This document shows positions 30,868 to 50,146 of a DNA stretch of 59,807 nucleotides, piece by piece; the first letter of the stretch is position 1, and each line of letters begins with the position of its first letter. The position numbers were made by a program, and so were the translations under genes. The notes below the pieces were generated by a model. The model made no database searches, was not told the origin of the DNA, and was given only the letters and a program-made list of their open reading frames with translations. Origin of the DNA: a virus (Duplodnaviria > Caudoviricetes); IMG/VR virus record IMGVR_UViG_3300028883_000009, positions 1 through 59,807 of that record; one strand, written 5' to 3'.

Positions 30868-31338
30868 TCATATGTGTGCATCATAAAGCCGTGTGTACGG
30901 CGTGTTACCATCGTTTATCTTTACCACCCCATCGGTGCAGAGACAGAAGCAAAACTCATGCGCCCATCCTGGTGCCATTCCCCGAATCGTGCAAACAGCG
31001 CAACCTGGAACCGCTGCTTCCAATTTGCTCCTGTACCACCTTGTACTTCGGTTGCAGTCGAAAACGGACTGAGCGTTGTATTTCGGGAGTTGTGGCGGGG
31101 GGCAGTTTGCCTTGATCTCTGCCAACTTCCACTCGACTTCCGCTTGCGGATAGGTAAGGTAAAACGTATCTGCCCTGCCCATTGCCCATTCCACACCCTC
31201 ACTCCACTGAGAAAACACGTACCATTCGCACCAGTATTTTGCCTCTGCCGATGTGATTGACTGAGCGTTGTCATACGTCAGCGGTACGGGTTCAAGAAGG
31301 ACTCGGCCCTTGTGGAATAATGCTTTCCAAAGGTTCAT
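30868..31338 (-). CDS. Transglutaminase/papain-fold-like protein
   Basis: FDC...HEFC...IND putative triad. Confidence 0.5.
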   Translation of the reverse strand: MNLWKALFHKGRVLLEPVPLTYDNAQSITSAEAKYWCEWYVFSQWSEGVEWAMGRADTFYLTYPQAEVEWKLAEIKANCPPPQLPKYNAQSVFDCNRSTRWYRSKLEAAVPGCAVCTIRGMAPGWAHEFCFCLCTDGVVKINDGNTPYTRLYDAHI

Positions 31339-32714
31339 TTTTCAACCACCTTTGGCGTACATTCACAGTTTTCAAGTGCTCCAACTCTGCCTATCAGATC
31401 ATTTATCTGCTGTTGCTGAGTTAGGTTCTGATTGAGTAGGGCTGTTTTGTCGGCTTGAAGTTGATCAACTTTGTCTGATAACTGTTGAACAGCTTTAAAA
31501 AGGACTGGAACAAGTTCTGCCTTCGCTATACCATAGTATGTTTCATTATCATTATTGACTGTTTCGAACATTCGTTTAGGGATAAATGTTGATATTGCTT
31601 TGGGGTAAAATTCCAAAACATCTTGTGCCACAAACCCTGTGCGATTATCTGTACCGGCTTCTGTATAATCGGACACTTTTATTTTCTTAACTAAATCAAG
31701 CCCATCAATCCCTGTATCTCGGATGTTATCTTTTAACCTTTCATCCGATGAATCAACAAGTTGAAAAGTACCACCATTATTTTCGATGTATCCCACAGAG
31801 TTTCCATCACCATCAAATGCATAAAAATACAATGTTTGACCACTTCCATTATCAGCCCCCGCTTGTACCTCAATGCCGTAACGATTAGCATTGTTGCCAT
31901 CATTAAAAAACCTACCAACATAATCAGATTCAGCGTTGTCAACTACATCTAGTGCATTTCCTGGACTCGCAGTACCTATGCCTACGTTGCCAGTATCGCC
32001 TTCAACAACAAGTTTACTAGTATCCACCGTGAAATCATCCCCGGCATCACTCCCCAAATCAACATTCACACTCGTGTCAGCGTCACTCGCAATCGTGGCA
32101 AGGGAAATCTTTCGCACATCTACAATATCCTTGTCGTTTATGTCTATGCCATCGTTGAAGGTCTGTGTGACGGTGAAGGCATTAGCCACATCGTTCTTTG
32201 TGGTGTCGGCATCGTAGGCTTGAACCGTTACACCAAGATCGGCATTTTCCAGCACCATTGAGGTGGTGGCACTTATCATGTCAAGGTTGTCTGTGCTAAC
32301 ATCTGAAGCACCAAGAACCTTGCCCGTGCTGTCAATGTATGCCACGGTGTTGGTGTTTGCACCGGTTAGGGTGACGCCTACGTGGGTGGGTGAATCCGTG
32401 GTTGCCATTCCCTGATCTTGCCCGTCAAGATGTGCAAGTTCTGCTGAAGAAACCGCCGTTCCTGTTATCTTGCCGGTAGCATCTGTAATGAGGGCAGAAC
32501 CCTTTGTGAGATATGTCATGCTCGGCTGTACCTGAAACGTCCATGCCCCCGTTACCGATTCATCTTGTGACAGGTTCCCGTACTGTGTGTGGTCATCATC
32601 GGTCAATCCGTCAAGCGCACCGTGATCCGTCTTGCCGACAGGTTTCACCCGCACAGCATCGGCAGTTGACACCATGAAAAGCAGGATTAGAAATGCGTAT
32701 AATATCTTTTTCAT
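31335..32714 (-). CDS. Tail fibre with C-terminal S74 intramolecular chaperone and an N-terminal signal peptide
   Basis: GNVGIGTASP repeat, SSDERLKDNI cleavage motif, GFVAQD, coiled coil; starts MKKILYAFLILLFMVSTADA. Confidence 0.85.
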   Translation of the reverse strand: MKKILYAFLILLFMVSTADAVRVKPVGKTDHGALDGLTDDDHTQYGNLSQDESVTGAWTFQVQPSMTYLTKGSALITDATGKITGTAVSSAELAHLDGQDQGMATTDSPTHVGVTLTGANTNTVAYIDSTGKVLGASDVSTDNLDMISATTSMVLENADLGVTVQAYDADTTKNDVANAFTVTQTFNDGIDINDKDIVDVRKISLATIASDADTSVNVDLGSDAGDDFTVDTSKLVVEGDTGNVGIGTASPGNALDVVDNAESDYVGRFFNDGNNANRYGIEVQAGADNGSGQTLYFYAFDGDGNSVGYIENNGGTFQLVDSSDERLKDNIRDTGIDGLDLVKKIKVSDYTEAGTDNRTGFVAQDVLEFYPKAISTFIPKRMFETVNNDNETYYGIAKAELVPVLFKAVQQLSDKVDQLQADKTALLNQNLTQQQQINDLIGRVGALENCECTPKVVEK

Positions 32715-32724
32715 GTTTTCCCCC

Positions 32725-33201
32725 TTACTGCACCGCATGGATTATCATTTCAAGCAGCATTACGCCGGTGTTGGTGTTCGTGTCGTCATTCTTAATCTTC
32801 ACACCAATATCGTCTGTTGTGCTGTTGTCACGGTTCATGTAAATCAGGTTCAGGTCGTTGTCAGACATGGAACGGTTAATGCCGTCATAGTCATATATCT
32901 CGTACACACTGCCCTCGTAACTGCCCGATGTTTTGGTATAGATGCTCAAATCATAATCATCGGAATATGAAGACGTGGGACAGGCAATGGAGATGTAGTC
33001 AATCATGCCCTTCTGAAACGGCAAATCAATTGTCTGTAAATCACCCGTTGTGTTTGACTGAACAGAGGGGATGTAGGTCTGAATAACGTACACCTTGTCA
33101 AGCACCCTTAGTATGTCTGTGTCTGCCGGTGTTAACGTTCCCCCGAAACACACGCCGCACATGAACAGAAAAACCGTTATGCTGATTAGTAACTTCTTCA
33201 T
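32725..33201 (-). CDS. Signal-peptide-bearing beta-rich protein in the tail module
   Basis: MKKLLISITVFLFMCGVCFG; GGGAGG RBS. Confidence 0.7.
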   Translation of the reverse strand: MKKLLISITVFLFMCGVCFGGTLTPADTDILRVLDKVYVIQTYIPSVQSNTTGDLQTIDLPFQKGMIDYISIACPTSSYSDDYDLSIYTKTSGSYEGSVYEIYDYDGINRSMSDNDLNLIYMNRDNSTTDDIGVKIKNDDTNTNTGVMLLEMIIHAVQ

Positions 33202-33221
33202 TTATCTTCCTCCCTTTGCTT

Positions 33222-33292
33222 AAAATAAAAAGACCACGCCTATTGAAAGACGTGGCCTTAATGCGTGGTCTAGCTAAATTATATTTAATTTT
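33222..33292 (-). terminator. Terminator with an alternative pairing arm
   Basis: GGCCACGTC...GGCGTGGTC plus T run; upstream GACCACGC is also complementary to the 3' arm. Confidence 0.65.
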
Positions 33293-33295
33293 GTG

Positions 33296-36200
33296 TTATG
33301 CTATGTTGCCGAGTAATGTATTGCCCCTGTATCCGTATCGTGGTCGTTTGGGTCTGGCACGGGGTCTGACACGACCACGGGACTTTTTCTTCTTCTTTTG
33401 AGATTCCTTTAGAAGTTCATAAAAAGATTCCTTTTCACCACCCTTAATCTTTTCAAATGAAACACTAGCGGCATCATCTTTGCTTTTTATGTATTGCTCT
33501 GCCAGGTCAAAGGCGTGTTTCATTTCTTCTTCACTAAGTTTGTTTTCAACTTGTTTTTTTAGGTTCTCAACCCTTGTCTTAAATTCACTTGAAAGCTCGA
33601 TATATCTATCTAAATCCTTTGGTGAACTTGCCCGTAACGATTTGGTGAAATCAGACTTTAGAGATTGAAGTTTATATATCACCCTTCTTTCAACGGGGTT
33701 TCTCTGATACATAAAGACAAAAGGCCATATGGCAAAATCCCATATCTTATCAGAATTTTTATAAAGAGCCTTTGCCGCTTCCTTTTGTGTCGTTTCCGGT
33801 TCGTCAACAAGAGGTTTGGTTATCTTGACTATTTCGCCAAAAGCATAACGGGAGAAGTCCAACAACTGTATTGGCAATGGGTTAAACGGGTTTGTGATCT
33901 GCCCCCCGCCCGTTCTTTCGTTCTTGGCTATATTGATAGCAATTTTATAGACAGGGTGCATTAAATAAGATAAACCCTTAAACTCCTGTTCCCCGATTGA
34001 CATATCATCCCGCTTTTTAAGAAACCAGTAGTAGTATTTCAGGGGAAGGTTCGCCGGGTGTGAGAAGGTAACAACAACTTCCTTTTCCCCATCGTCTGTC
34101 TGCACTCGCTTTACATACTTTCTGCCCCACTGGTCATCATCCCATCCGTTCATTTTCATTAACAGGTCAACACCTATATTAATCCCGGCAGTTGTCAGTA
34201 GAGCACCGGCATAGGCAAGGTGTTTTCTATCAACGTTAGTCATTCTGCCGGTAAACGCTTTGCCTAATGTTTTGGGCAGTTTGAAAGCACTTTCAAGCAT
34301 TTTCCCGTAAAACTTGCCCATACAAATTTGAAATGTGGGGGTGAAAAACAGTTTATTGAGAATCTTTCTCGTTTTGGGTGGAACACTTGCATAGTCTGCG
34401 TGTGCCTGTGCCGCTACTTGTGCTGCATCCCTTGCGCTATACCCCTTGTCTCTGAGATATTCGTATGTTGTAAACCTAACATATTTATCTCCCTCCCACG
34501 CAAAATGCCATGACAGGTTGTAGACGTCTTTTATAAGATTTGTCGGGTTGTACCATTTCCCCACATGGTTCTTTATAACACCAACAAGATTTTTGCTTTC
34601 CTTAACGTCTGCCAACTGGTTTTTGAAATGGTTTAACGGGTTGTCGTACGGGGTTGAAAGCAGTCCGTTTTCAATCGCTTCATAATATCTCTTGCCCCGC
34701 TGATTTACGGTCTTTATGCCACGGTAAATATCTTTTCCCACCTTGTATGGGTTGAGCGTTCTCAATCCCCTTATCATCACACCCTGAACAACGTCATACA
34801 TGGGCATAATAACGGGGTTGTAAAACTGAAACATCTTTGCCGTGCTCATAAACACACCAATAACGTTTTCTTCACCCTTGAGCATTGACATATAATCTTG
34901 CAGGTATTTGTATGCTACCGGCTGTATGCGGTATTTTCTAAGTGTTGGAAATTCATCACCGGCCTCCACCCAGTCGGGGTGTGTCGGGTTTTCTTTTATT
35001 TTCTCAACCAACCCGTCTTTTATCATGGCATCTTTAATGTCTTTAAATGCCTTCTGTCTGAACACGTACCGGGTTACATACCCAACAGAGTCAATTATAT
35101 TGAACCGTTGTTCTGCTTCTTCAAGCGTTTTACCGGTTGCTTTTGATATGGTTTCAACAAGGTCGTAGGGGTCAATGGTTTCACGTCCTTTAATTTGACT
35201 AAAACCACCCTGTAAAAGAACCTGTTTGTATGCTTTCGGGTCTGTTCTTTTTAACTCATCAAAGATTGCGCCAAGCGGGATATGTGCATATTCAAGTTGC
35301 CTTAACCGTACAATATCGCCCTTGAGTTTTGATATTTGACTATAGAGTTTATTCTTATCAACTGTTAAGAGTTTTTCATCACGCAGTCTTTCCTTGTGTT
35401 GCTCTATGGTCTGTTCAATTCGTCTGATGTGGCTCCAGGGCCAGAGGTTTTCAAGTACCTCCCATTCCTTTAGGAGTGCTCCCATTTGGTCAAAATATGC
35501 CCGTATCGGTTTTGCCTGCTCCTGTAATTGGTCGAATTTGCCGGGGTGTTTCTTTTTAAACTTCTGTGAATTTGAAGCCACAAAGAGAAGTGCTATCTGA
35601 TCATCTTTCGGCAGTTTTGAATATTCTTTAACAGCGTCTAATGCCCGTTCATCGGCAAGCTGCTTCTTGCTTACCATCGTTTTAAGGGTAAACCCCGTAT
35701 CTTCGGCATCAAGTTTCCTAAACGGTGCTTCAACACTGAATGTTGCCTTTAGTCTGTCAAGCAGGGTTTCTTCATCGGGTATTATCCTGTTTAGGGTTTC
35801 CCGTACTTCTTCTTTTGGTGTTGAATCGTCTTTTAATTGTTGTATGAGCTTCTTTCTTGCCCCTTCAATGGTATCGTCCTTTACACCAAGACTCTCAACC
35901 TTTCCACGTTTTTTATCTATTCTTACAGCCTTAAATCTTGCTTTCTGGTATGGACTGCCACCCTTGTCAGGTATAAACCTGACATTTTCCATATTTCTCA
36001 TTTCCCGGTATGCCTCCACCGCCTTATTAGCGTTTGCCGTGGCAAGACCAACGTTGTCTTTGTACTGTGCCTTCCTGAGAAGGTGGTTTTTCATGTGCTC
36101 TTTAAATTCAACGCCCTTCTTCACCGCTTCTGCTTCAAGTTTTGCCATGAGTTCGAGGAAGGCGTTGTTTTGTGGTGAGTCAACCGCTTCTTTCGTGCTG

Positions 36201-39200
36201 AAACTCGTACCCCCCTCATACGTGACAATCGCATCTTCAACAGGTATGTTTTCGCTTGAGTAGGGTGGTGTCTTTGCCCGTTCTTCTGCGGTCATGTCTG
36301 CACGGGCGGCGGTGTCACGGGCCTCTATTTCACCGGCAAGACGGCGGTAATAAGAATAGGGGTCCATAATATCAGGGTCATTTTCAAGGTCTTTTACAGT
36401 CTGGACAAGAGCATCATATTGCCTTTGCATTTCTTCGTATTCTTTTTGTGTTTCGGCATTGTTTATTCTTTTTCTTGCCTCTCTTAGACCGTTTCTCTTT
36501 ATGTCTTTAAGTGTTTTTTGTTTTACAAGGTCTTTAAAATATATCTTCGGATTAGGACTCCCACCCCTTGCGAACCCCTCTCTCTCCTGTATGGCGTGTT
36601 GGATTTCGTGGAGAAGAATTGTACGCAATTCATCATAGTTTTTTGCTACAACCTTTATGGTTTTACCGTTATATTCGCCGCCACGTTCTTTGCCGAAAAA
36701 CTTATCAATCTCATCACGTATTTTTATACCAACCGGGATTTCTGCTGCTTCGGGATATTGTTTATATAATTCTGGATGGTTTAAAATATGTTTCAGTTTT
36801 ACTCCGGTTTTGCTTGAATCAAGGATTACTTCGCCCGATTTATCAAGATATTCTTTTGCTTCATCTGCTATCTTCGCCTTACTATCATCAATCTCAAACC
36901 GTTCCTTCTTGTCATACTTGCCTTCAAATACCTTCCCGCCCTTCTTTGCTTCTTCAAACGTGGTTGCCTTGCCACCCACAAGCATACCGTGTTCGTTGGA
37001 AATGGCGTTCTTGGCAGACAGGTACAACTGACGTGCGATTCTGCGTACCCTCTCCCACGCCTTGCCGAGTGCTTCGTGCATTGCCTTGTACCACTCGCTG
37101 TACTTTGTCTTGCCGGACTCGTACACATGCCGAGCGAGGGTGTTGAGGTCGTCACCTAGTTCTTCCAACGTCTTCTGAAGGGGTGCTCCTTCAACGTCCA
37201 TTGAAAGACCGATGTGGGGTCGCTCTTTGTAGTAATTGTCTATATCGTTAAGTATTTTACGGGGTGATGTTCCAATATCATATTGGTGCGATTCTGTGTT
37301 TGCAGCATACATATAATCGTCTTTTTCTTTTTGTATCCCACTTGAAAGGTCTAAATAAACCTCACCATTTAAAGACGATATAAGTTGTTGCAGTACCCTT
37401 CTCTGTGCTTGGTTTGGGGCGTTTAAAAGATGGATAGACCCACTATTACCGTCAATCCTTATATTCCCAAGTTGCATAAACTCATACATGTGCAGATCGG
37501 TTGGGGATGATACCTCCCTGTGGTCAAGACTTCTTCTTGATGTGCCACTACCCTGATTTTTCCCCGAAAGGTCAAGCATGGTGCCACGGGGTGTTATATA
37601 TCCGGCAGATTCAAACGACTTTGTTAAACCAAAATATCTTGCTGCTTTCCGCTGTATAGAATCAACTTGTCTTTGAGTATCACTTTTTTGATGTTCACCA
37701 AGTTCAAGAACCTCTTTAAGCGTTTCTCCGTGTTCATCTCCCCAACCATTTTTGCGATGGTCATTGGTTTCCTTAAAAAACTTTTCCCACCTAAAACCAG
37801 AATCTTCACCACCAAAACCCTTCCGCTTCATGCGTGTGGCGATTTTCTTCCACTCCCGTTTTGTAATTCCACCTATGTCTGTTATAACAACATTGCCAGC
37901 ATCGTTTATGTGTGCTTTTTCAGGTTTACTGCTAGGCGGTTCAATCCTCTTACCTTGCTCGTCAACGTACTTTATCGTCAGACCGCCCTTGTCTTTGGAG
38001 TAGTCAATAACAGCGTCTTTCAGCTTGTCAAAGTTGGAGGCGATGCGGGAGGTGGTGGCGGGGATGTTGGGTGTTGCTTTTACTTGTAACTCATCAAATA
38101 TTGGTTTTTGGCCAGTTTTCCGTTCTATCAAGTCTGCCGCTGCATCAAGGTCGCTTGATATGTCATCTTGATATTTTTTAACCCTTCTTGTGATTGCCGC
38201 ATTACTTGACGCTTCTCTGATAACAACACCGTCAAGCCTTTTTTGTTCTTCCGCAACAATGCCCTTGGTTATTTCAGCAAGTTTATCATATAACTGCTTT
38301 GCGTTTTTGTCTGTTATTGCCGTTTCATAACGACCGTATCCAACATGCATCCTTTTAGAGTAGGCGTTCCAAAGCTGTTTCCTTGCACTTATTACTTGTG
38401 TAAGCAGATTACGGTTAATGTCCCATATCTGTTCTTTGGCAATGCGTTCGCCACTCTTGCCCTCTGCAAAATGTGTAACACACTCACTACCAACAGCCAT
38501 TGTCCATTTTTTGTTGTCATTCTGTAACCAATAGTATTTCTTAATGCGATGACCACATAGTTGGCACGTTTCTTCGCCTTGGAACAACGATGGTGCGTTT
38601 TTGTATCCACTCGGAAAATCAAAACTTGGCATCATGGTCATACCACCACCGTCTGTTTCAACAGCTGTTTCACCGCTAACGGGTATAGCTGACCATTCGC
38701 TAATATCCGTTCCCATGTGTTTCATGTTTTCGGATACAGCTTTATCGTAGGACATTCCTATGGGTTTTTCTTTGGTATCAATAGACAACTGTTCTTTCGG
38801 TACGGGTTTCTCAAACTCAAAATCTTCCCCGCCCGTTATGCCTTCTTCCGGCATTTCAGACTGAACAGTTAGGAGGTCTTGCTGTGTGGGTTTCTTCTTT
38901 TGCTTCTTAGCTGATTGCTGCTTTAGGGTAAGGGGTTCTCCTTGGGATTCTTTTTCTATTGCTTCAGCTTCACGTTTCCATTTTGTTTCATCAGAACGAA
39001 ATTCGTCTAATTCTTCGGCCTGGTCGTTGAGCCAATCTCCGAGTTCGTTGACTGTTTCTGAGACTTCTTCTTCGGTAAGAATCCCATTTGCCACGCTTTC
39101 TGCATTAACTTCGCTCTGTACAGATTTTTCATGTGTTCTCGCAGTTTCGTCAACTGCTGTGGCGTTAATTTGTCCTTCATTTATTAACTCCTGCTTGACA

Positions 39201-42200
39201 TAATATTCATATTCCTGCTCTTGAATATCGGCTTCTAAATTATACCCATAAGTATCTTGATTGTCAATAGAAAAAACACCCTCTTTACCTTCTATTGACT
39301 CACGCATTTTCTCCATAAAGTCGTTTAGACTAGCAGACTCAGGTAGATACCCCGCCTCAACAAGAGCTTCACGCATATAATCAAGACTCATTCCCTTACC
39401 GTCTTTTCGCAAAACCCTTGTATATCCAATCTGTGTGTTTTTTTGCTTGTCTTTGGCTAAGTCCGATATGGTCGGCCCCCACTTCCCGTGAACTTGGTCA
39501 TAATCAAGACCACCCCTTTTGGCTATCCATGTGAGCATTTCATCTTTTGTGCTGTCTGGCTTGCGGCGTTCCTTTGCCCGTTTCTGCGCCTCTAAACTGC
39601 GTAATGCTTTTTGCTCTGCGACATCCTCTGTTACTTGCTCCCCTTGCTTATCAATTAACCTGTGTGCTTCCTCTATCGCTTTTTGTTTTGCACCCTTACC
39701 TTTAAAATAACTAGTTTCAATGCGGTTTTCACCATAGTTGAAAGCACGGATTCCCCGTTTTGTTTGCTGTGTAAAAAAGGCAACACCCTTGTATGGTTCT
39801 ACCTCTTTCATCCCAACATTTCTTGCTACGCCAATCTCACCACTTTTGCCAACACTTACGCCAGTTACCTTCCTTACACCCTCCCGGTCAAGGGGTTTGG
39901 CTGGCACCGCCCCTTCAGACGGTGCCTCGACTCCTTGTAAGCTTGGTACCTGAGCCGTTTGAGCCGTTTGTGACCCATTAGTCATCTCCGCAGGCTTCAC
40001 TTCGGGGGCGGGGGCGGGTTTGGGGGCGGGTTCAGTACCACTAGCACGTTGTACCGATTCTAAATATTCTTCCCTTGCACTTTCGTAATCGGGAAATTCT
40101 TTTATTCCAACAACTTCGTTTGAGTCTGCGTCAAATATCCTTATAACGCTACTTGTGTCTTTACGATTACCAGAAGCATAAAGTTCATAATCAACACCAT
40201 CTATCCTTTGTGCATCAACGACAACACGCTTTTTCCCCATTACTTTTTGTTCGCTACCAACTCTTTTCTTTTCACCCCCCACCGGCTTTTCAACGGGTGC
40301 TGAAACTTCGGGGGCGGGGGCGGGTTTGGGGGCGGGGGAAAGGTCATCCCTTGCTTTCTTATAATATCCAAGGGCGTTTTCAATGTCTTTTTGTTTAAGC
40401 GGGTCTTTCTCTTTGGCAAGATTATCTTCTTCTTCACGAATAAGCCTGTTGATGCGTGTTAATTCATCCTCTTTTTTTTCTGTTTTCTGCTCACCACCGA
40501 AAAAGGATTCAATCTCGTTCAGCTTTTCTTCTTCCGTCTGCTCCCCCACCGGCTTTTCAACGGGTGCTGAAACTTCCGCTTTGGGTGATGCTTCGGGGGC
40601 AACACCCCCCTCTCCAACGGGAGTAGCGGCACGGGGAGGCTCAATTTCCAGTTCTTTAGGGGTCGCTATGTCTGGCCGGTCTTTCTGTAATTCTGGCCTT
40701 TTCAGCTTTTCGGGTATGCCCTCTATGACCAATCTCTGCGTGTCTTCGTCAACTCCCGCTTCCTGCATGGCAACTTTCAGCTTTTCAACGCTTCTCTCAG
40801 GGGGCGTGTAGTCTTTGGATTGCGGGACTTTCCCCACATCTTCGGGTCTGATAGTCTTGGGTGCTTCTTTCTCCGCTTCTAAAATGGTGGAAACAATGTC
40901 GTCTTCAACGCCGTAGTCGGGCTTGTCAAGGTCGGCGGCTTCCTTTTCGATGATGTCACGGTTGATTTCGTCAGGGGTTTTGGCACGAACATTCTGTACA
41001 AGGTTTTGAAAATATGGGGAGTCTGTACCATATCGCCTACCAACCTCTCTTGCTATTTGCCCTTCAGTCATACCTTGATTGCGGAAACCTTCAGCAACCT
41101 GTTCAACGTCTTGCCTTACAAGACCCTTTTCTCTTACAGATAAGCGATACCACCAATCGGGGGGTTGCATATCTTTTATGTCTTTGCCCTTACCACCCAT
41201 AAGACCAAAGATACCGAGAACAGCAGCACCCTTGGCAATTTCACGGGCATCACCACCAGAAACAGCGGCATCTACACCACCAACCGCAGCAAGACCAGGG
41301 ATTCGTATAGGAAGGTTGAACTTGTTGGCAACGTGAAGAAGTTTCCCCAAAATAGTACGGTGTGCGATTGCCTTCGCCGTATCAGCAACACCACCACCCT
41401 CGCTCATTGCCTTTAACCCCGCATACATGGGGCCAGCACCAAACTCTATAACACCAGTTGGAGCACCACCAACAACAGCACCGACAATTTCCGTATCAAG
41501 TGCCCCCTTGTTCTTTATCATGCCCTCTATTGCTTCTGCATTATCGTTGTAATACTGCTCAACACGGTCAACAAGGTTCTTGGTCGGTTCCTCAAGCGGG
41601 TGTCCACTCCCCTCCATTGCCCTGTGTGCAAGTTTGGGGAAAGTGTTTGCAACACTACCCATACCCCTGTTGAGTTCGGCAACGCTTTGTAATCCATAAT
41701 CCTTTGCCTTGTCAACCACCGCTTCGGCAACGGGTTTGCTTGCCTGTGCCTGGTCTATATATGACTGCCCCCATCGTGAGTACCAAGAGGGTTCTTGTGG
41801 TTCGCCGTTTGAAATCTGTCGCCATGTGTCATATGACTCTAATACCTTTTTCATTTCCTCAAAGGGGAGGTTGTTTTCAATAGACCAATCAATAGCATCG
41901 GCAACGGGGGAACCTTGCCACATATTTTTTAGATGTTGTAAGCGTTTACTTTTAGGTATCTTGGCATATCTATAATAGTCATCCTTTGCATGTTCGGCGT
42001 TTTCCCATCTTCCACCTTGAGCATCCTTCTCAAGTTGAAGCATATATTGTTCGCCATCATTTGTGACAAACAAGTGCCTTTGGTATGGGGTGCCTCCGGT
42101 TTGGGAGGGGTGGTTAAAATCAAACCTCCCCGGTTTGCCACGGACAACAACCTCGGGACTATAGCCACCCTGTAGACGTGGGGTGACTAATTCTGATTCG

Positions 42201-42349
42201 GCAGACGCAACTTGACTGTCGTCTACAGGGTGCTCCTGTGACATTCTGAACTTGTCAAAAGCATCTGGTTCTTGGGTTTGGTAAAACCTGTCAAATGCAT
42301 CTGGTTCAGATTCTTGCTGAGATAATTCAAATTTCTCAAAAGCGTCCAT
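33296..42349 (-). CDS. Giant internal virion/ejection polyvalent protein (3017 aa) with an LPD23-like zincin domain
   Basis: Position after ejection genes; RFEIDD...LLHEIQHAIQEREGFARGG...YRRLAGEIEARD; additional inserted domains. Confidence 0.8.
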   Translation of the reverse strand: MDAFEKFELSQQESEPDAFDRFYQTQEPDAFDKFRMSQEHPVDDSQVASAESELVTPRLQGGYSPEVVVRGKPGRFDFNHPSQTGGTPYQRHLFVTNDGEQYMLQLEKDAQGGRWENAEHAKDDYYRYAKIPKSKRLQHLKNMWQGSPVADAIDWSIENNLPFEEMKKVLESYDTWRQISNGEPQEPSWYSRWGQSYIDQAQASKPVAEAVVDKAKDYGLQSVAELNRGMGSVANTFPKLAHRAMEGSGHPLEEPTKNLVDRVEQYYNDNAEAIEGMIKNKGALDTEIVGAVVGGAPTGVIEFGAGPMYAGLKAMSEGGGVADTAKAIAHRTILGKLLHVANKFNLPIRIPGLAAVGGVDAAVSGGDAREIAKGAAVLGIFGLMGGKGKDIKDMQPPDWWYRLSVREKGLVRQDVEQVAEGFRNQGMTEGQIAREVGRRYGTDSPYFQNLVQNVRAKTPDEINRDIIEKEAADLDKPDYGVEDDIVSTILEAEKEAPKTIRPEDVGKVPQSKDYTPPERSVEKLKVAMQEAGVDEDTQRLVIEGIPEKLKRPELQKDRPDIATPKELEIEPPRAATPVGEGGVAPEASPKAEVSAPVEKPVGEQTEEEKLNEIESFFGGEQKTEKKEDELTRINRLIREEEDNLAKEKDPLKQKDIENALGYYKKARDDLSPAPKPAPAPEVSAPVEKPVGGEKKRVGSEQKVMGKKRVVVDAQRIDGVDYELYASGNRKDTSSVIRIFDADSNEVVGIKEFPDYESAREEYLESVQRASGTEPAPKPAPAPEVKPAEMTNGSQTAQTAQVPSLQGVEAPSEGAVPAKPLDREGVRKVTGVSVGKSGEIGVARNVGMKEVEPYKGVAFFTQQTKRGIRAFNYGENRIETSYFKGKGAKQKAIEEAHRLIDKQGEQVTEDVAEQKALRSLEAQKRAKERRKPDSTKDEMLTWIAKRGGLDYDQVHGKWGPTISDLAKDKQKNTQIGYTRVLRKDGKGMSLDYMREALVEAGYLPESASLNDFMEKMRESIEGKEGVFSIDNQDTYGYNLEADIQEQEYEYYVKQELINEGQINATAVDETARTHEKSVQSEVNAESVANGILTEEEVSETVNELGDWLNDQAEELDEFRSDETKWKREAEAIEKESQGEPLTLKQQSAKKQKKKPTQQDLLTVQSEMPEEGITGGEDFEFEKPVPKEQLSIDTKEKPIGMSYDKAVSENMKHMGTDISEWSAIPVSGETAVETDGGGMTMMPSFDFPSGYKNAPSLFQGEETCQLCGHRIKKYYWLQNDNKKWTMAVGSECVTHFAEGKSGERIAKEQIWDINRNLLTQVISARKQLWNAYSKRMHVGYGRYETAITDKNAKQLYDKLAEITKGIVAEEQKRLDGVVIREASSNAAITRRVKKYQDDISSDLDAAADLIERKTGQKPIFDELQVKATPNIPATTSRIASNFDKLKDAVIDYSKDKGGLTIKYVDEQGKRIEPPSSKPEKAHINDAGNVVITDIGGITKREWKKIATRMKRKGFGGEDSGFRWEKFFKETNDHRKNGWGDEHGETLKEVLELGEHQKSDTQRQVDSIQRKAARYFGLTKSFESAGYITPRGTMLDLSGKNQGSGTSRRSLDHREVSSPTDLHMYEFMQLGNIRIDGNSGSIHLLNAPNQAQRRVLQQLISSLNGEVYLDLSSGIQKEKDDYMYAANTESHQYDIGTSPRKILNDIDNYYKERPHIGLSMDVEGAPLQKTLEELGDDLNTLARHVYESGKTKYSEWYKAMHEALGKAWERVRRIARQLYLSAKNAISNEHGMLVGGKATTFEEAKKGGKVFEGKYDKKERFEIDDSKAKIADEAKEYLDKSGEVILDSSKTGVKLKHILNHPELYKQYPEAAEIPVGIKIRDEIDKFFGKERGGEYNGKTIKVVAKNYDELRTILLHEIQHAIQEREGFARGGSPNPKIYFKDLVKQKTLKDIKRNGLREARKRINNAETQKEYEEMQRQYDALVQTVKDLENDPDIMDPYSYYRRLAGEIEARDTAARADMTAEERAKTPPYSSENIPVEDAIVTYEGGTSFSTKEAVDSPQNNAFLELMAKLEAEAVKKGVEFKEHMKNHLLRKAQYKDNVGLATANANKAVEAYREMRNMENVRFIPDKGGSPYQKARFKAVRIDKKRGKVESLGVKDDTIEGARKKLIQQLKDDSTPKEEVRETLNRIIPDEETLLDRLKATFSVEAPFRKLDAEDTGFTLKTMVSKKQLADERALDAVKEYSKLPKDDQIALLFVASNSQKFKKKHPGKFDQLQEQAKPIRAYFDQMGALLKEWEVLENLWPWSHIRRIEQTIEQHKERLRDEKLLTVDKNKLYSQISKLKGDIVRLRQLEYAHIPLGAIFDELKRTDPKAYKQVLLQGGFSQIKGRETIDPYDLVETISKATGKTLEEAEQRFNIIDSVGYVTRYVFRQKAFKDIKDAMIKDGLVEKIKENPTHPDWVEAGDEFPTLRKYRIQPVAYKYLQDYMSMLKGEENVIGVFMSTAKMFQFYNPVIMPMYDVVQGVMIRGLRTLNPYKVGKDIYRGIKTVNQRGKRYYEAIENGLLSTPYDNPLNHFKNQLADVKESKNLVGVIKNHVGKWYNPTNLIKDVYNLSWHFAWEGDKYVRFTTYEYLRDKGYSARDAAQVAAQAHADYASVPPKTRKILNKLFFTPTFQICMGKFYGKMLESAFKLPKTLGKAFTGRMTNVDRKHLAYAGALLTTAGINIGVDLLMKMNGWDDDQWGRKYVKRVQTDDGEKEVVVTFSHPANLPLKYYYWFLKKRDDMSIGEQEFKGLSYLMHPVYKIAINIAKNERTGGGQITNPFNPLPIQLLDFSRYAFGEIVKITKPLVDEPETTQKEAAKALYKNSDKIWDFAIWPFVFMYQRNPVERRVIYKLQSLKSDFTKSLRASSPKDLDRYIELSSEFKTRVENLKKQVENKLSEEEMKHAFDLAEQYIKSKDDAASVSFEKIKGGEKESFYELLKESQKKKKKSRGRVRPRARPKRPRYGYRGNTLLGNIA

Positions 42350-42350
42350 A

Positions 42351-43589
42351 TTACCTGCGCTGTTTTAATTGTTTGTATATTTGCTGAACCTGCTTCATAA
42401 GAGCGGGGTTTTTGCTGAGTTGTGCAATTATGGCGTTGGTATCCCCACCCGCCTTCTCAACGGCAATTATCTGCTGTGCCATTTCCTCTGGCTTTTTCAG
42501 TGCCGTCTGGTCAATGCCTGCCGGTCTTTGCTGTGCCATTTGGTTTTGCACGGGTGCTGTCGTGGTTGTGGTAGTTGTACCCTTCTGTATCGGGTCAATC
42601 ATCCTTTTCCCGGTGGGGGGTATTGCCCTGTTTTGTGGCGGTTGCCCTCCACCTAAAAGGGTTCTCCCTGCCGTCTTCACGCTGTTTATCGGATGTGCAA
42701 GCATCTGCCCTGCCGTGCCTAGTATACTGCTCCCAACCCCAGGGGGTGTCTTTGCTGCGGGTACTGGTGTTTTTTGGGGTGCGCCCGGTCGTGGCGGTTT
42801 CTTAATCGGCAGGTCTGCCGGGGTAATAACAACCCCTTTGCTCTTACCGTACTCTATAAGCTGTTGCGCCTGCTGTGGGGTGTATCCTCCCTTTGGGGGT
42901 TCCCCTGCGTATTCCGTTTCAATACCTTTTATAGCATTGAAATGCCCGATTATTGCTTGTATTTCTTTTATGGATGCGGGTTTGGGGTTGTCCTTCTTCT
43001 CCGGTTTCAGACTTGCCTTGTAATCTTCCTTCTCTTTGAAGGTTTTTAAATCCCTTTCCTCTTTGGCAAGTTCACCCTGCTCGTCTGTGTACCCCTCCAT
43101 CTTGCCGAGTTGTGTGCTGAGATAGGTGTTCAGACTTGTAATAGCTGAAAGGTCGTCAAGGTTCGGGTTCTGCTTCTTCATTCCACCGATAAGTGTTTCA
43201 ATCGCACCCGTGTAGTCAAGACCAGTTGAACCTGTGAGTGCTTCCTTCAAGTCGGGATGAATGTTCAAACCCGCCTTCTCAAGCGATTCGGGGGATATTG
43301 ACATGAACTTGGAAATGTTCTCAGACAGTTGGCTTTTTGCCTTGGCAATGGCTTCCTGTCGCTTGTTGTTGGCGGTCAGGCGGTTTTGCGATGCCTTGTC
43401 TATCATGTTCATTCTCTGCTTCTGTATGGCGGCTTTATCCTCCATACCTTGCAGGTCTTTCCAACCCTGTATCTTCTGCCTTTCCCGTTCCGCTTTTGCC
43501 TTTTCCTCTTGGTCGAGAAGGCGGCTCCGACTGAAATGGTCGCCAGCCCCCTTGAGAAAACCACCTAATATCTTTCTTCCACTTCCCAT
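42351..43589 (-). CDS. Putative ejection/internal virion protein
   Basis: Gly-rich amphipathic N-terminus, coiled coils, podovirus synteny. Confidence 0.65.
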   Translation of the reverse strand: MGSGRKILGGFLKGAGDHFSRSRLLDQEEKAKAERERQKIQGWKDLQGMEDKAAIQKQRMNMIDKASQNRLTANNKRQEAIAKAKSQLSENISKFMSISPESLEKAGLNIHPDLKEALTGSTGLDYTGAIETLIGGMKKQNPNLDDLSAITSLNTYLSTQLGKMEGYTDEQGELAKEERDLKTFKEKEDYKASLKPEKKDNPKPASIKEIQAIIGHFNAIKGIETEYAGEPPKGGYTPQQAQQLIEYGKSKGVVITPADLPIKKPPRPGAPQKTPVPAAKTPPGVGSSILGTAGQMLAHPINSVKTAGRTLLGGGQPPQNRAIPPTGKRMIDPIQKGTTTTTTTAPVQNQMAQQRPAGIDQTALKKPEEMAQQIIAVEKAGGDTNAIIAQLSKNPALMKQVQQIYKQLKQRR

Positions 43590-43593
43590 TTAT

Positions 43594-45627: not shown

Positions 45628-46163
45628 GTTTCTGCCCCCCCACTGTCAAGAAGTCCACGCCTGTTCAAAAACCTCTCCCCCGCTTTCAGGGCGTAAGGCA
45701 TAAGCATTAACCCAACCAACCCACTCAACCAACTTTGCTTGAGTGCCGTTGCGTTCTGGTTCATCTCAACCTGCGCTTGTGAAGGGGTGGGAACAACGGC
45801 GTGCATGAATTCTTCCCATTCGGGTTCCTTGCCTTTAAGCCCCTGGTCAACGAGATAGGCAACGCCACCGCCGACTGGCCCGAAATAGGCGTTTGCCGAC
45901 ATTTCATCGGGAACGGCACTTCCTGTTTTGGTCATGCGCTGATATTTCAGTTCTTCTTCTGCAAGTTTCCTCTGCGCCCGTTCCCCTTCGCTTTCATCGT
46001 CCATCAAAGAAGCACCAATCCCGGCAACCCCGCTTGCAACACTTCCAATAGGGTCGCCACCCATGAAAGACGCTATCATCTGGTCGGATATACCGGGTTT
46101 GCTGCTGCTCTGAACGGGTTGCCCGTTTCTCGTCCACGGGTCTGTATAACCCCATCGTGCCAT
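45624..46163 (-). CDS. Putative small ejection protein
   Basis: IGSVASGVAGIGASL-type segment; synteny. Confidence 0.55.
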   Translation of the reverse strand: MARWGYTDPWTRNGQPVQSSSKPGISDQMIASFMGGDPIGSVASGVAGIGASLMDDESEGERAQRKLAEEELKYQRMTKTGSAVPDEMSANAYFGPVGGGVAYLVDQGLKGKEPEWEEFMHAVVPTPSQAQVEMNQNATALKQSWLSGLVGLMLMPYALKAGERFLNRRGLLDSGGAET

Positions 46164-46176
46164 CGTACCTACCCCC

Positions 46177-47937
46177 TTATCTGTATGTATGCGGTTTGTA
46201 AAGCATACTTAACTTGTAAATAGTGAATGGTTTTGTGGAGTTCTCCCGCACCATTACGGCAGAGTATTTTCCACGTTCATCTATATCAATCTCGCCTGTT
46301 CCATCAGCGGCAAGCGTTATTTCCCCTTGATATTTCCAATCGGCCCCGGCGTCAGGTGCGTCACAGAAACAGGTGTATATCTTGTACGGACCGGGGTTTT
46401 GCGTGTAATTTGCCTGCATTAAAACCTTGAATCCCCTGTCGTGCCGGGTCGGGTCGCCCATAGGGTCAAGGCGGGTCTGAACAATGCTTTCAATCGGGTC
46501 ATCGTCATCGTCTGCAAAATGGTTCTGTATGATGAGTTTTGACGTGCCGAGTTTGAGTATCGGGTCTGAAATTATATCTTCTTCGGCAACACTTAAAGCC
46601 TTGTGCTTGTTCGGAACGCCAACCCAAGACTGCGCCGCCGTTCCCGGCACCCTTGTGTTGCCGAGAATCTTCACCGTGTCCGAAAACTGGTGCATTTCCC
46701 ATGCTCCTGTTGTCGGGATGTATTTAAAAAGATATTCCCCTGTCGTAAAATATATATGCCCGTTGTATATGTTCTCTGCCGTGGCAACGTCCCACGTTCC
46801 AGGGTCGGCAGAGGCAAACAGGTCATGTATCGGTTCGCTTATCCATGTTTCTTCAGGGTCTAGTATTCTGCCCTTATCGTTAAAGAAAAACTGCTTTGCG
46901 CCACTCATACCGCCGTGATTTGACGGGCCGACCGTATCTTTCACACGGGCAAAGTTGCTGAAGGGGGCAATCGCCCACAACTGGTTTTCCTTGTCGTTCC
47001 CGCCTTTTCCGAGATAGAGAATATCGTTTCTCTTTTTAAGACCCGTAATAACAAGCCCGTCTTCCGGTCTTCGCTGGTTCCCTGCAACGGAACTGCCAAC
47101 AGCCGTAAAGTCGGTTGCATCGTCAACGTCTGTCCACATCACACCGTATGAATCTGCCGTTCCATACCCGTCATCTGCGATATAAGCAAGCCATATCCGG
47201 TCATAAAAAGAGGCGAGGTATTTCCCGATAGGCCCGTCTGTAACCGCCGTGTTGCCGCCTATTGTGCAGATATTGTTTGTACCGGTAATGTCGAGGTTTT
47301 CCGCTTCAAACGTGCCGGTCTGGTCTTTCACGTAAAGCGTACCGGCAGCGTCACCACCCGCCCACGTCCCGCTTGTTTTATTTACATATGTAACCGTTGC
47401 CGTTGCCCCGCCGGTTGCACCTGTTATATCATCTCCAACGGCAAGTTCCGTTGTGCCGCCACTTGTAAACGCTACGCTTCGCTCTGCACTCAACTGCGAG
47501 ATGGTCTGTGTCGAATGACTGTAATACTGAATAGGGTCTGAATTGTTGGACAGTACCGTGCATTGTCCAACCGTGCGGTCGTAATGGTCGGTAAACGTCC
47601 ATGTATTTGACTTGTGAAGGCTCGTTTTCTTGGATGTAATTGTCGGGGATGACTGCGTACTTTCTGTGTCCCACTCGTAAATCACACCGGAATCGTCAAC
47701 GGAGGATTTCCCGACACATACCAGCATGTACTGCGAGTTTCCCCTGTGCGCCGACAATATCTCATTACCGGCTAAATAGTCCTCAAAGTCCTTTATCGTG
47801 GTCGTTCCCAACCGCTTGCGCCACACACCGTTATCAAACCATATATTCACCGCATACGGCGTTTCGTGCGGTTGCAGTTCATGCCACGGTTTAACGCTGT
47901 TAAGTGTAGTTGCAAGGGGATAGTGATATAGTTCCAT
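46177..47937 (-). CDS. Tail nozzle/stabilisation protein (P22 gp10-like beta-propeller)
   Basis: N-terminal N.WFDNG..RKRLG motif, beta-rich, size and synteny. Confidence 0.75.
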   Translation of the reverse strand: MELYHYPLATTLNSVKPWHELQPHETPYAVNIWFDNGVWRKRLGTTTIKDFEDYLAGNEILSAHRGNSQYMLVCVGKSSVDDSGVIYEWDTESTQSSPTITSKKTSLHKSNTWTFTDHYDRTVGQCTVLSNNSDPIQYYSHSTQTISQLSAERSVAFTSGGTTELAVGDDITGATGGATATVTYVNKTSGTWAGGDAAGTLYVKDQTGTFEAENLDITGTNNICTIGGNTAVTDGPIGKYLASFYDRIWLAYIADDGYGTADSYGVMWTDVDDATDFTAVGSSVAGNQRRPEDGLVITGLKKRNDILYLGKGGNDKENQLWAIAPFSNFARVKDTVGPSNHGGMSGAKQFFFNDKGRILDPEETWISEPIHDLFASADPGTWDVATAENIYNGHIYFTTGEYLFKYIPTTGAWEMHQFSDTVKILGNTRVPGTAAQSWVGVPNKHKALSVAEEDIISDPILKLGTSKLIIQNHFADDDDDPIESIVQTRLDPMGDPTRHDRGFKVLMQANYTQNPGPYKIYTCFCDAPDAGADWKYQGEITLAADGTGEIDIDERGKYSAVMVRENSTKPFTIYKLSMLYKPHTYR

Positions 47938-48654
47938 TTAGTGCCTGAAAATCATGTGTAATATGTTAAAAACAACCGATGCGTTATCGCTTGAATCGTC
48001 ATGGTCACGGTAAACGCACCACATAACCTCATCACCGTAACTGAACGTGTCAGTCGGCATTTCAAGGGTGACGACACTCGTTGCCGATATGGGATTACCG
48101 CTTGAATAGGCAGTCCACCCTGTTAAATCCGTTGTCGTGCTGATAGTCGTACTTGCAGCATCTGCGTCCATTATAAACGCTTCCATCACAACATTATCCG
48201 TGCAGGTAGATTCGATAAACCCCGCCATATCGAGATAAAACTTCCTGTTCGGGTCGTACCAGTAAGGAATTTTGTACTTGAAATTAACGGCATCTGTCGT
48301 TGCGTAATTGAACTGCATCGCCCACACCCCGTTTGTGTCACCACCAAAAAACGTGCGGGTTGGTGTGTTTGTATCGGCGTTCCCCACCGTCCACAGGTTT
48401 TCATGTATCGGACACCACGAACAGTCAGTGTCAAAGGTCGGGCTTACCTGATTCGTCCCGTCCCATCCGCTAACCGTTACGCTTCCCTTTGTGTAAGAAA
48501 TGAAATCAGCAAAAACGTCAGACAGGTAGATGTAATTGCCCTTCATCTTGTCAACGTTCTTAGACCACGCAGTACCGTCTTTAGGATAGCCGTCAGTCCA
48601 CCGAGCACCGACAAGACAGAGAAAACAACATATAAGAAGTAAAATCTTTTTCAT
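47938..48654 (-). CDS. Signal-peptide-bearing virion-module protein (paralog of 49427-50146)
   Basis: MKK plus hydrophobic core; shared W.DG.P, SGWD.T, FFG.DTNG, AVNF, YR..DDS.DNAS. Confidence 0.7.
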   Translation of the reverse strand: MKKILLLICCFLCLVGARWTDGYPKDGTAWSKNVDKMKGNYIYLSDVFADFISYTKGSVTVSGWDGTNQVSPTFDTDCSWCPIHENLWTVGNADTNTPTRTFFGGDTNGVWAMQFNYATTDAVNFKYKIPYWYDPNRKFYLDMAGFIESTCTDNVVMEAFIMDADAASTTISTTTDLTGWTAYSSGNPISATSVVTLEMPTDTFSYGDEVMWCVYRDHDDSSDNASVVFNILHMIFRH

Positions 48655-49430
48655 TCAAGATTACCGAGATAAACCTGATAAATGTCATCTGCCGATAATG
48701 CGCTTAACCAGTAACATGCGTCATCCACATACCCTGAGAAATATGACTTTGCGTTCCAACTACTCCTGTCTGCCCCTATGTCGAAATCATCACCAATCGT
48801 ACCGTTCCATGTTGCGTCATCTGCCGTGGCTGTTGTTGCAACGGCAACCCCGTCTACATACAGGGCCGTGCTGTCCAAATCCTTCGGGTTCACGTCCGGC
48901 GAACTTGGAAGTGATGTTTCATAAGACACCGCAACGTGATGCCATGCACCGTCCCTTATGTCGGTTTCCGTAGCGTCAAGTTGCAGATATTTCCCCGCAG
49001 TCGGTTCACCAAAGAGAAACCCTAAGTACCCGCTTGCGCTGAAATAGAACTTCCAGCAGTCACCACCGATATTTTCTGTTCGCCCTGCAATTATGCCGTC
49101 TGTCGCAACGCTTGTCTTAACCCACGCTGTAAATGTCATACTGCCGTCACTTGCCGAGAAATTCATTGAACTGGGGTTTGATGCGTACAGGTAATTAGGA
49201 GAACCACCCAGTTGTACGCTTGTCCCGAATTGCCCCGACTTGTTGAACGTAGCAGACCCGCTAACCGACAAATTCACACTCCCCCAACTGTCTGTTGCCG
49301 GGGCAGAGGAATCGTCCATCTTCCACCGTGCGACACCAGACGAAACGGTTGTCCCTGTATACAGAACCGTGGCCCCCGCAAAGTCTGCAAACAAAAAAAT
49401 CAACAGTGCTGTTAAACAAATCTTCTTCAT
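48651..49430 (-). CDS. LamG/concanavalin-like domain protein with signal peptide
   Basis: WKMDD, TFTAWVK, DGAWHHVAVSY, LYVDG, IGA, FSGYVDD..W..ALS. Confidence 0.85.
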   Translation of the reverse strand: MKKICLTALLIFLFADFAGATVLYTGTTVSSGVARWKMDDSSAPATDSWGSVNLSVSGSATFNKSGQFGTSVQLGGSPNYLYASNPSSMNFSASDGSMTFTAWVKTSVATDGIIAGRTENIGGDCWKFYFSASGYLGFLFGEPTAGKYLQLDATETDIRDGAWHHVAVSYETSLPSSPDVNPKDLDSTALYVDGVAVATTATADDATWNGTIGDDFDIGADRSSWNAKSYFSGYVDDACYWLSALSADDIYQVYLGNLE

Positions 49431-50146
49431 TGCGTCTGATCCAGTAAATAGTCAAGCACACAGAACCGAATTGATGCGTTATCGGTCGAATCATCGGGAA
49501 CCCGGTACACACTCCACGATACCCAGTCGTCATCTGCAAAGGTAGCGGTTGGAACAAGGATGTTCACATTGCTTGTATACGTTACGGGGTTCTGTGATGC
49601 ACTTGCCGTAAAACCCGAAAGTGCCTGCGTGGTCGTTACCGTTGCCGAATTACCGGAAGATGTAACAGCGGTAAACCCCATAACCGCCCTGTCGGTTGAC
49701 GTTGTAGTGATGAAAGAGACAAGGGTAAGCGTAATGCTTGATGTAACGTCAAAAGCGGAATCAACATGATGCACGAAATTAACCGCCTGCTGCGTGGTCG
49801 GACTAAAAGACCACCCTCTCGCCCCGTTTGTATCTGCCCCGAAAAACTGCCACACCGCCCCGTTTGTGCTTGCCGCATCCACGTCTTGAATATGAAGCGG
49901 GATAGCACAAGACGTGCAATCGTTGAAATATGCGTTTGAATAGTCGGTATCGTCCCACCCGCTTGCTTTCGTCCCGCTATAATCGTGGGCAATGAGGGAA
50001 TAGAACAGGTCGTGCAGAAAAATAAAATTGTCCTGGGAATCGTCTATTACCTCATCCTGCGAATCGGTCTTTTCCGGTTTGCCGTCTTGCCATGTCGCAG
50101 CAAAAAGAAAAATACAGCTTATAAATAATATCAGTAACTTTTTCAA
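49427..50146 (-). CDS. Signal-peptide-bearing virion-module protein (paralog of 47938-48654)
   Basis: MKKLLILFISCIFLFAA; shared motifs with its paralog. Confidence 0.7.
   Translation of the reverse strand: MKKLLILFISCIFLFAATWQDGKPEKTDSQDEVIDDSQDNFIFLHDLFYSLIAHDYSGTKASGWDDTDYSNAYFNDCTSCAIPLHIQDVDAASTNGAVWQFFGADTNGARGWSFSPTTQQAVNFVHHVDSAFDVTSSITLTLVSFITTTSTDRAVMGFTAVTSSGNSATVTTTQALSGFTASASQNPVTYTSNVNILVPTATFADDDWVSWSVYRVPDDSTDNASIRFCVLDYLLDQTQ

Follow-up and report, generated by a model that had tools for sequence, protein, structure and literature searches.

How can a tailed phage make use of tail proteins that appear to be marked for export, when textbook tailed-phage morphogenesis is wholly cytoplasmic? 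The question is raised by the virus record IMGVR_UViG_3300028883_000009, which was analysed over its whole length of 59,807 bp (termed "the window" here), bears direct terminal repeats, is rated 100% complete and represents a complete podophage genome. The phage is a tailed phage, encoding terminase, portal and an HK97-type capsid, and its genes from approximately 26.5 to 59.8 kb are carried on the minus strand. An original prediction from this DNA had claimed that five tail-module proteins, including a tail fibre and a lectin, begin with Sec-type signal peptides, and had proposed that they are exported and the virion finished in the periplasm or at lysis, or alternatively that they are secreted as adhesins or decoys. 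The observation is confirmed and is part of a wider pattern across uncultured phages. All five open reading frames (ORFs) were recovered on the minus strand with the start positions originally given (protein lengths in amino acids, aa):

49427-50146, minus strand: 239-aa protein with a TTG start, a signal-like N-terminus of ~17 aa, a conserved mature N-terminal motif and a C-terminal beta-sandwich domain
48651-49430, minus strand: 259-aa LamG lectin-like protein, signal-like over its first ~20 aa, with a start codon that overlaps the stop of the gene upstream
47938-48654, minus strand: 238-aa protein with a signal-like N-terminus of ~17 aa, paralogue of the 239-aa protein
32725-33201, minus strand: 158-aa protein with a signal-like N-terminus of ~20 aa behind a strong Shine-Dalgarno site
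31335-32714, minus strand: 459-aa tail fibre that opens with a signal-like N-terminus of 20 aa and ends in an S74 intramolecular-chaperone domain

The label of an S74-chaperone tail fibre is borne out by a match of the 459-aa protein to Peptidase_S74 (PF13884; E 2.4e-8, 34.6 bits against a gathering cut-off of 22, residues 323-373) and by matches to PHROG tail-fibre families (phrog_5481 "tail fiber", E 2.2e-16). The LamG label holds as well, the 259-aa protein matching Laminin_G_3 above its gathering score (PF13385; E 4.7e-18, 66.2 bits against 27.6, residues 91-250). With 37% identity, the 238- and 239-aa proteins are paralogues, and their nearest clusters in the ESM Atlas are viral. The C-terminal domain of the 238-aa protein (residues ~76-238, ~160 residues) is modelled in the Atlas as a beta-sandwich similar to carbohydrate-binding modules (CBMs); the C-terminal 160 residues superpose on viral proteins and also on a CBM_4_9 protein (TM score 0.52), a resemblance that serves as a lead only. 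The 158-aa protein is likewise predicted to form a small beta-sandwich whose nearest Atlas clusters are viral, and all five proteins look like binding modules. None of the five matched NCBIfam or PADLOC, and a PDB sequence search with the fibre yielded nothing usable.

Signal-like N-termini were called by a charge and hydropathy rule written for this analysis, together with conservation, rather than by a trained predictor. All five proteins start with M/L-K-K, the two lysines at positions 2-3 providing a positively charged n-region, and continue with an uncharged hydrophobic run of 12-16 residues that terminates in small residues; in each protein this N-terminal stretch is the sole transmembrane-like window. 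The small-residue ends, read by eye without a weight matrix, are ADA, CFG, VGA and AGA, and are ambiguous for the 239-aa protein (FAA or AAT). The claimed succession of MKK, hydrophobic core and cleavage-like site therefore stands in its anatomy for all five proteins, and requires amendment for the ORF at 50146, which starts with TTG and has an ambiguous cleavage site. A lipobox of the form [LVI][ASTVI][GAS]C at the end of the h-region fits none of the five.

The start codons are backed by their context. Shine-Dalgarno sites lie ahead of the starts at 50146, 33201 and 32714: the TTG at 50146 stands behind the strong site AAGGGGGAGAGGG, and in the fibre gene, whose longest frame opens at 32738, the site AAGGGGGA serves the ATG at 32714 and thus supports the MKK start. 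The genes starting at 49430 and 48654 are translationally coupled, as each start codon overlaps the stop before it. Since 40 of the 67 gene starts examined in the window have a Shine-Dalgarno-like site, the host uses such sites. True starts downstream of the hydrophobic segments, which would have argued against the original prediction, found no credible candidate in any of the five ORFs: no Shine-Dalgarno-backed in-frame start was found there, and codons 2-50 of the 239-aa gene are devoid of ATG, GTG and TTG. An internal start giving rise to a cytoplasmic isoform was considered and rejected, because no Shine-Dalgarno-backed start was found. N-terminal signal-like segments occur in seven of 72 listed ORFs, and five of these seven fall among the 13 tail-module ORFs (hypergeometric P = 0.0016); the other two are the ORF at 2171-2383 and a lipoprotein-like one at 28524-28844.

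Homologues in related phages keep the peptides, both in close relatives and in distant members of the 238/239-aa family. The metagenome contigs L007 and L008 carry a 239-aa gene in which both the TTG start and the ribosome-binding site are unchanged, and its product is identical to that of the window at 13 of 17 signal residues and 201 of 222 mature residues. In the LamG gene of these relatives, a shorter and diverged hydrophobic segment is followed by the same mature sequence TVLYTGTTVS. Faster change with retained form is typical of signal peptides, and selection appears to keep the form of the signals rather than their sequence. A profile search with the 238/239-aa family among 1.84 billion representatives retrieved ten proteins at E <= 1e-3, two of which are the window's own family. 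Four of the eight non-self relatives are similar in the N-terminal part, and each of them has a signal-like start followed by the same motif, of the type W-x-x-G-x-P ... D-N-F-I-F-L; the other four (P0126-P0128, P0130) share only the C-terminal domain and have no signal. In the relative P0122, LIGC occupies residues 8-11, which is nearer the N-terminus than in a normal lipoprotein signal.

Among the complete homologues of the fibre (111 of the 119 non-self matches listed), 21 are signal-like. A motif scan of IMG/VR identified 54 loci; 16 were set aside, their ORF either extending beyond the contig or not being delimited by the ORF caller, which left 38 delimited fibre ORFs. Seven of these 38 are signal-like, or nine if methionines 7-13 codons downstream are used, against a background of 16/623 for the heuristic on other ORFs of viral loci (Fisher p 1.5e-4); the fibre count includes the near-duplicates L070 and L071. 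Further signal-bearing ORFs adjoin the signal-like fibres, namely 768 and 175 aa in L018, 286 aa in L019, 185 aa in L064, 992 and 350 aa in L068, 228 and 1030 aa in L069, and 1219 aa in L070. As the fibre cassette also occurs in L018/L002, a siphovirus-like contig with a 1234-aa gene of tape-measure size, it moves between tail types. Searches of phages by tblastn gave no match with the 238-aa protein or P0123, one weak partial match only with P0127, and a single match with the fibre, in Pelagibacter phage HTVC106P. Related-loci searches with P0123 and with the 586-aa protein listed below found nothing, and none of these searches found a cultured relative.

Whether the signal-bearing proteins are virion parts can be judged from their genomic position, which is defined by the following neighbours:

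51072-52007, minus strand: 311-aa adaptor-like paralogue without signal, head-proximal in gene order, no direct Pfam match
50444-51079, minus strand: 211-aa SU10-type tail adaptor (SU10_adaptor, PF24175) without signal
50143-50442, minus strand: 99-aa protein, encoded after the adaptor and before the first of the signal-bearing genes, identical at 83 of 99 residues in the relatives L007/L008
46177-47937, minus strand: 586-aa protein in the nozzle position of an SU10-like gene order, nozzle candidate
33296-42349, minus strand: 3017-aa protein that separates the two groups of signal-bearing genes, no family above cut-off

From the adaptor onwards the order is adaptor, 99-aa gene, the three signal-bearing genes, 586-aa gene, then genes for 179, 677, 412 and 3017 aa, the 158-aa protein and the fibre. 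In the available part of the account of Escherichia phage SU10 (Kuravirus), the genes for long and short tail fibres lie between adaptor gp11 and nozzle gp17; gp11 offers docks for the long fibres gp12 and gp13, gp17 binds the short fibres gp16, and the needle and ejection proteins follow (PMC9509320). The window resembles SU10 in its PF24175 adaptor and in the succession of adaptor, small fibre-type genes, a large protein and presumed ejection proteins; by this gene order, the signal-bearing trio at 47.9-50.1 kb sits in the tail-fibre slot. Unlike in SU10, the genes in this slot lack detectable sequence similarity to known fibres and carry signal-like N-termini, and there are two tandem adaptor-like genes. 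The part of the SU10 account at hand mentions no such N-termini for this phage (PMC9509320). No promoter- or terminator-like sites that set off the 47.9-50.1 kb trio were found; it is translationally coupled inside the structural operon and resembles its neighbours in GC content.

The adaptor originally placed beside the trio is indeed one: the 50444-51079 product matches PF24175 with E 5.2e-13 and 50.3 bits against 27, over profile positions 25-182 of 194, and a PDB sequence search with it returned nothing usable. The "nozzle" label of 46177-47937 was not confirmed, as the protein has no family or PDB sequence match. Residues ~139-240 of this 586-aa protein make up a domain that recurs, sometimes in two copies, in numerous metagenomic proteins of ~690 aa at 50-60% identity, and a domain of ~85 aa is shared at 50% identity between its residues 147-230 and residues 64-147 of the 311-aa protein. 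Proteins of 581-589 aa also come after signal-less adaptors in L077/L079. The C-terminal half of the 311-aa protein is 32.5% identical to an ORF of contig G002:C6 that itself matches PF24175 (E 1.4e-15), and the 311-aa protein belongs to a first, signal-less adaptor-like type. The 3017-aa protein is presumed to be an internal or ejection protein by a T7/SU10-like gene order. Its N-terminus contains short repeats of the type P-D-A-F-D-K/R-F; a 515-aa ORF at the matching position in L072 (G403) opens with D-P-F-A-Y-L-F-E-D-G-P repeats.

In other phages the signals extend to the adaptor itself. The signal-bearing 228-aa protein of L069 is a PF24175 adaptor (E 4e-14, 54 bits), whose start is preceded by a GAGGTGG site and followed by no alternative start codon before codon 48, and the 232-aa protein of L070 also matches PF24175 (30.6 bits). 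The viral contigs L075 and L076 encode an adaptor that is 50% identical to that of L069 and keeps the signal; here, signals are found on the fibre (771 aa), not on a 295-aa gene, and again on the adaptor (225 aa) and the next gene (1490 aa). In a collection of 5.8 billion proteins, the L069 adaptor has homologues in 22 clusters (42-100% identity; 19 with a precomputed PF24175 assignment), and 21 of them carry a signal; the remaining one (P0256), which appears to be truncated at the start, is without the segment. The signal sequences vary, with the recurring ends AYGA, GYAA and SFGA. Distant signal-less adaptors (L077-L080) begin approximately nine residues before a shared V-R-S-L-I-N-E ... S-F-W-T-D motif, and therefore the adaptor signal appears to be an N-terminal addition to a conserved protein. 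In phages with signal-bearing adaptors, the gene before the adaptor is signal-less and the genes after it are signal-bearing.

The generic n-h-c segments probably represent Sec targeting with cleavage by signal peptidase I; this is the simplest reading, because such a segment is found on unrelated folds and is kept by selection. For the export and assembly-at-lysis proposal, export thus draws on anatomy, supported starts and conservation, and a virion role on the SU10-like fibre slot and on the signal-bearing adaptors elsewhere; this much of the original prediction is sustained, and its alternative of secreted adhesins or decoys still stands. We favour a role as virion parts, because the trio occupies the fibre slot and is coupled within the structural operon, because no other fibre is recognisable, and because adaptors elsewhere bear signals. 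As the adaptor is a core part of the tail, a decoy or adhesin function could not explain the signals on adaptors.

In the route that we infer, from translocation and cleavage to where and when docking takes place, and in a host inferred to be diderm, the five N-terminal segments would act as cleavable Sec-type (signal peptidase I) signal peptides, and late in infection the 238/239-aa pair, the LamG protein, the 158-aa protein and the S74 fibre would cross the cytoplasmic membrane. The head, the portal, the two adaptor-like proteins, the nozzle candidate and the ejection proteins would be built in the cytoplasm. The exported proteins would fold and oligomerise outside it and dock on the adaptor/nozzle region only once lysis merges the compartments, such that the adsorption apparatus would be added last, in a step gated by lysis. 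Joining after export is conceivable: in classical in vitro assembly, fibres or spikes are added in a final step that can be separated from the rest, and lysis first breaches the cytoplasmic membrane. The long fibres of T4 and the tailspike of P22 in vitro show that the organelles of adsorption can be attached away from an intact cell to particles lacking nothing else. Such a late addition is required by the proposed mechanism, yet in T4 and P22 the step is normally cytoplasmic and the proteins have no signals. That the five fibre and lectin proteins are Sec-exported and join the particle at lysis is a tentative conclusion, to which we give slightly less than an even chance. A broader version is more doubtful: widespread uncultured podophages with SU10-type adaptors may build part of the tail outside the cytoplasm, restricted to the fibres in the window and comprising everything distal to the first signal-less adaptor-like protein in others, with DNA-filled heads plugged in the cytoplasm and Sec-exported parts joining at lysis. 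Speculatively, the benefit might lie in the extracytoplasmic folding of lectin-type binders or in hiding tail proteins from cytoplasmic sensors. Neither the cysteine content nor the GC content of the exported set stands out, the GC of the five genes being like that of neighbouring genes, and hence there is no specific support for an oxidative-folding rationale.

Several observations weigh against export followed by docking, and some of them favour proteins that are exported and never become part of the virion, as late soluble or surface-bound lectins related to receptor-binding proteins. Such proteins could possibly mask or modify the receptor on the infected cell and on debris, leading to superinfection exclusion and protection of the progeny, or they could serve as adhesins or decoys. 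All five are beta-sandwich/lectin-like or fibre-like binding modules, as would suit this role. Only ~10 residues separate the predicted cleavage site of the fibre from its shared motif, which lies ~70 residues into the signal-less homologue P0008, and a classical N-terminal tail-attachment domain therefore seems to be absent. The idea that the mature N-terminal motif of the 238/239-aa proteins corresponds to the N-terminus of signal-less fibres was rejected (hhalign probability <1%). A strong terminator-like hairpin at 33230-33259 (minus strand; 12-bp stem and T-run) between the 3017-aa and 158-aa genes is compatible with a separately regulated 158-aa/fibre cassette, with no promoter-like site between them, and this pair adjoins lysis-type genes, a usual site for accessory genes. 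In the siphovirus-like contig G001 the fibre cassette comes after large signal-less tail-tip proteins and could be accessory. The adaptor of the window itself has no signal, and the adaptor argument applies by analogy only. Moreover, the sole genome-embedded relative found (G002:C6 1-14000, L011), in a contig of a Desulfovibrionaceae metagenome-assembled genome (MAG), shows no signal-like tail ORFs; this relative is distant, with 44% identity in the portal, 52% in the major capsid protein and a GC content of 65% vs 47%. T5 Llp, phi80 and N15 Cor, and lambda Lom and Bor are encoded by export-signal genes among or after tail genes; at the cell envelope they target the host surface or the receptor used by the phage itself. 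Of these, Llp and phi80 Cor set a precedent for exported accessory proteins. Unlike these small lipoproteins or outer-membrane proteins, which are unrelated to fibres, the signals described here reside on a fibre, a lectin and, in relatives, adaptor homologues, and no lipobox is found. Signal-peptide genes of Porphyromonas gingivalis phages are read as host-surface modifiers in the accessible part of one study (PMC10367356), as are those of huge phages in what is available of another (bioRxiv 10.64898/2026.10.24.761521). A purely accessory function would leave the conserved adaptor signals of other phages unexplained, is at odds with the translational coupling of three genes in the SU10 fibre slot, and finds neither a fitting lipobox nor a PADLOC match. 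Furthermore, nothing recognisable as a signal-less fibre or as a receptor-binding candidate was found in the remainder of the complete genome, and unless the 586-aa protein serves in this capacity, the phage would therefore lack an identifiable adsorption protein. Altogether, we regard an exclusively accessory role as less likely than docking at lysis, though as a strong rival to it.

The hydrophobic N-termini might also have no role in translocation and be cleavable or buried assembly elements, such as membrane tethers or tail plugs, in particles assembled in the cytoplasm as usual. In P22 and T7 the tail assembles sequentially on the portal, and an exported adaptor is hard to square with such an order; yet 21 of 22 adaptor clusters carry the segment. 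Predicted "signal peptides" on major capsid proteins have been described, their cleavage being credited to prohead proteases in the part of the source available (PMC10367356), and consequently predictor-type features on virion proteins need not mean export. Still, the same n-h-c form on unrelated folds (fibre, LamG, beta-sandwich, adaptor) fits a targeting signal rather than a structure-specific contact. N-terminal lysines predict an N-in orientation, h-regions of 12-16 residues would be short for a stable anchor, and the small-residue ends AYGA, GYAA, SFGA, ADA and AGA recur; we thus consider assembly elements of this kind improbable. An artefact of mis-called starts or chance hydrophobic N-termini has in its favour that the signal-peptide calls come from a home-made heuristic, a further point against export, that the adaptor homologue P0256 lacks the segment and that metagenomic gene calls can err. 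Shine-Dalgarno sites and coupling back the starts, however, the clustering in the tail module has a P of 0.0016, and the segments are conserved across independent contigs and collections, which makes an artefact highly improbable.

Export followed by docking at lysis, the reading that we prefer, has its nearest parallel in the filamentous phages (Ff). The proteins of their virions, among them the one that binds the receptor, are synthesised as Sec precursors and do not come together with the genome until they are at the envelope. One account, in the text available, describes Sec signals on the coat and receptor-binding proteins of Ff and the assembly of these proteins at the membrane (PMC4823517). 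Ff belong to a different virus realm and assemble by extrusion, unlike the tailed phage of the window. The 459-aa protein resembles the S74 endosialidase-type fibres and spikes (PF13884) in matching this family above its cut-off and PHROG tail-fibre families in addition; unlike them, it has a signal-like peptide in place of a tail-attachment domain, a trait that it has in common with only one in five or so of its homologues. The families of these proteins are already known; what is new is the conserved export signal that they carry. A full-text literature search, with supplements and subscription journals outside its scope, found no paper on signal peptides of tailed-phage tail fibres or adaptors, and no description of a two-compartment assembly route for tailed phages was found. 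The absence of a signal peptide has even been used as a mark of phage rather than cell-surface origin for a fibre-like protein, according to the available part of that report (PMC6199706). Sortase substrates and outer-membrane proteins are reported in huge phages in the accessible part of a preprint (bioRxiv 10.64898/2026.10.24.761521).

Clues to the host come from the genome-embedded relative, which was found by a portal scan of GTDB genomes. The head-module relative in G002:C6 adjoins bacterial sensor-kinase-like and chemotaxis-like genes and is likely an integrated prophage. Within the phylum of this Desulfovibrionaceae MAG, the major capsid protein occurs at ~50% identity in only two of 401 genomes, and PF24175 in 26 of the 401, compared with none of 14 control genomes; the G321 contig was of insufficient length for use. 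One of the 28 PF24175 matches (L097), located in a prophage of a genome of the same phylum (G244), is signal-like at its start and follows a signal-less 317-aa adaptor-like gene. The locations of the G002 relative and of L097 hint at diderm hosts. The large terminase (TerL) matches phages of many hosts at only ~39% identity and is uninformative in this respect. A DNA search with the tail and head region against 50,697 phage records gave no match, and no tRNA genes were found in the 59,807-bp window. The remaining features are:

58005-59792, minus strand: portal (phrog_156)
54103-55077, minus strand: major capsid protein (phrog_9953)
2631-4157: large terminase
21277-22311: 344-aa ORF, tyrosine integrase-like by its N-terminal sequence and by BLAST matches to ORFs of other viral loci
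30868-31338, minus strand: 156-aa cysteine-rich protein directly after the fibre gene, with 8 Cys (5%) including C-x-C-x-C

Between the genes for 404 and 311 aa, a GC-rich terminator-like hairpin (52014-52037, minus strand; 9 pairs, 8 of them G-C) marks the boundary between head and tail genes. Residues 1-71 of the 404-aa protein (52045-53259, minus strand) are 41% identical to a 107-aa protein in the same place in L070/L071 (L070 6069-6392); judged by this alignment, the window protein looks like a 107-aa-type module with a 330-aa extension. At the opposite end of the tail module, the last ~40 residues of the fibre (31335-31460) are nearly identical to those of the fibre P0002 (L002 10001-11785, siphovirus-like contig), while the remainder is 43% identical, and the chaperone end looks as if it had been exchanged recently. 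The adjacent 156-aa protein is weakly similar to a 163-aa gene product after fibre P0002 in L002 (pairwise E 2e-5) and is a weakly conserved partner of signal-bearing fibres.

Among the lysis-type genes, an 86-aa ORF (30445-30871, minus strand) contains an S-x-H-x-x-G-x-A-x-D ... D-x-x-H pattern, which we take to be that of M15-type cell-wall peptidases, and a 59-aa ORF overlaps its start in another frame; the 86-aa ORF could represent either a split gene or a short endolysin. Beyond the fibre and the lysis-type genes lies a 106-aa ORF (28524-28844, minus strand) that starts MYKTLTICVLLAVFVSC and has a lipoprotein-like signal with Cys at position 17 and no family match; to judge from these features, it could encode a spanin component or an exclusion lipoprotein. 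A 70-aa ORF (2171-2383, minus strand), just after the terminase gene and far from the other lysis-type genes, has one N-terminal transmembrane-like segment and an acidic tail and is a holin-like candidate.

If the signals work as they look, these phages would either carry out the last step of assembly outside the cytoplasm or routinely secrete copies of their binding proteins. Either outcome would change the prediction and expression of receptor-binding proteins, the annotation of signal-bearing fibre-like genes in bacterial genomes, and the engineering of host range, where recombinant fibres might need periplasmic expression.

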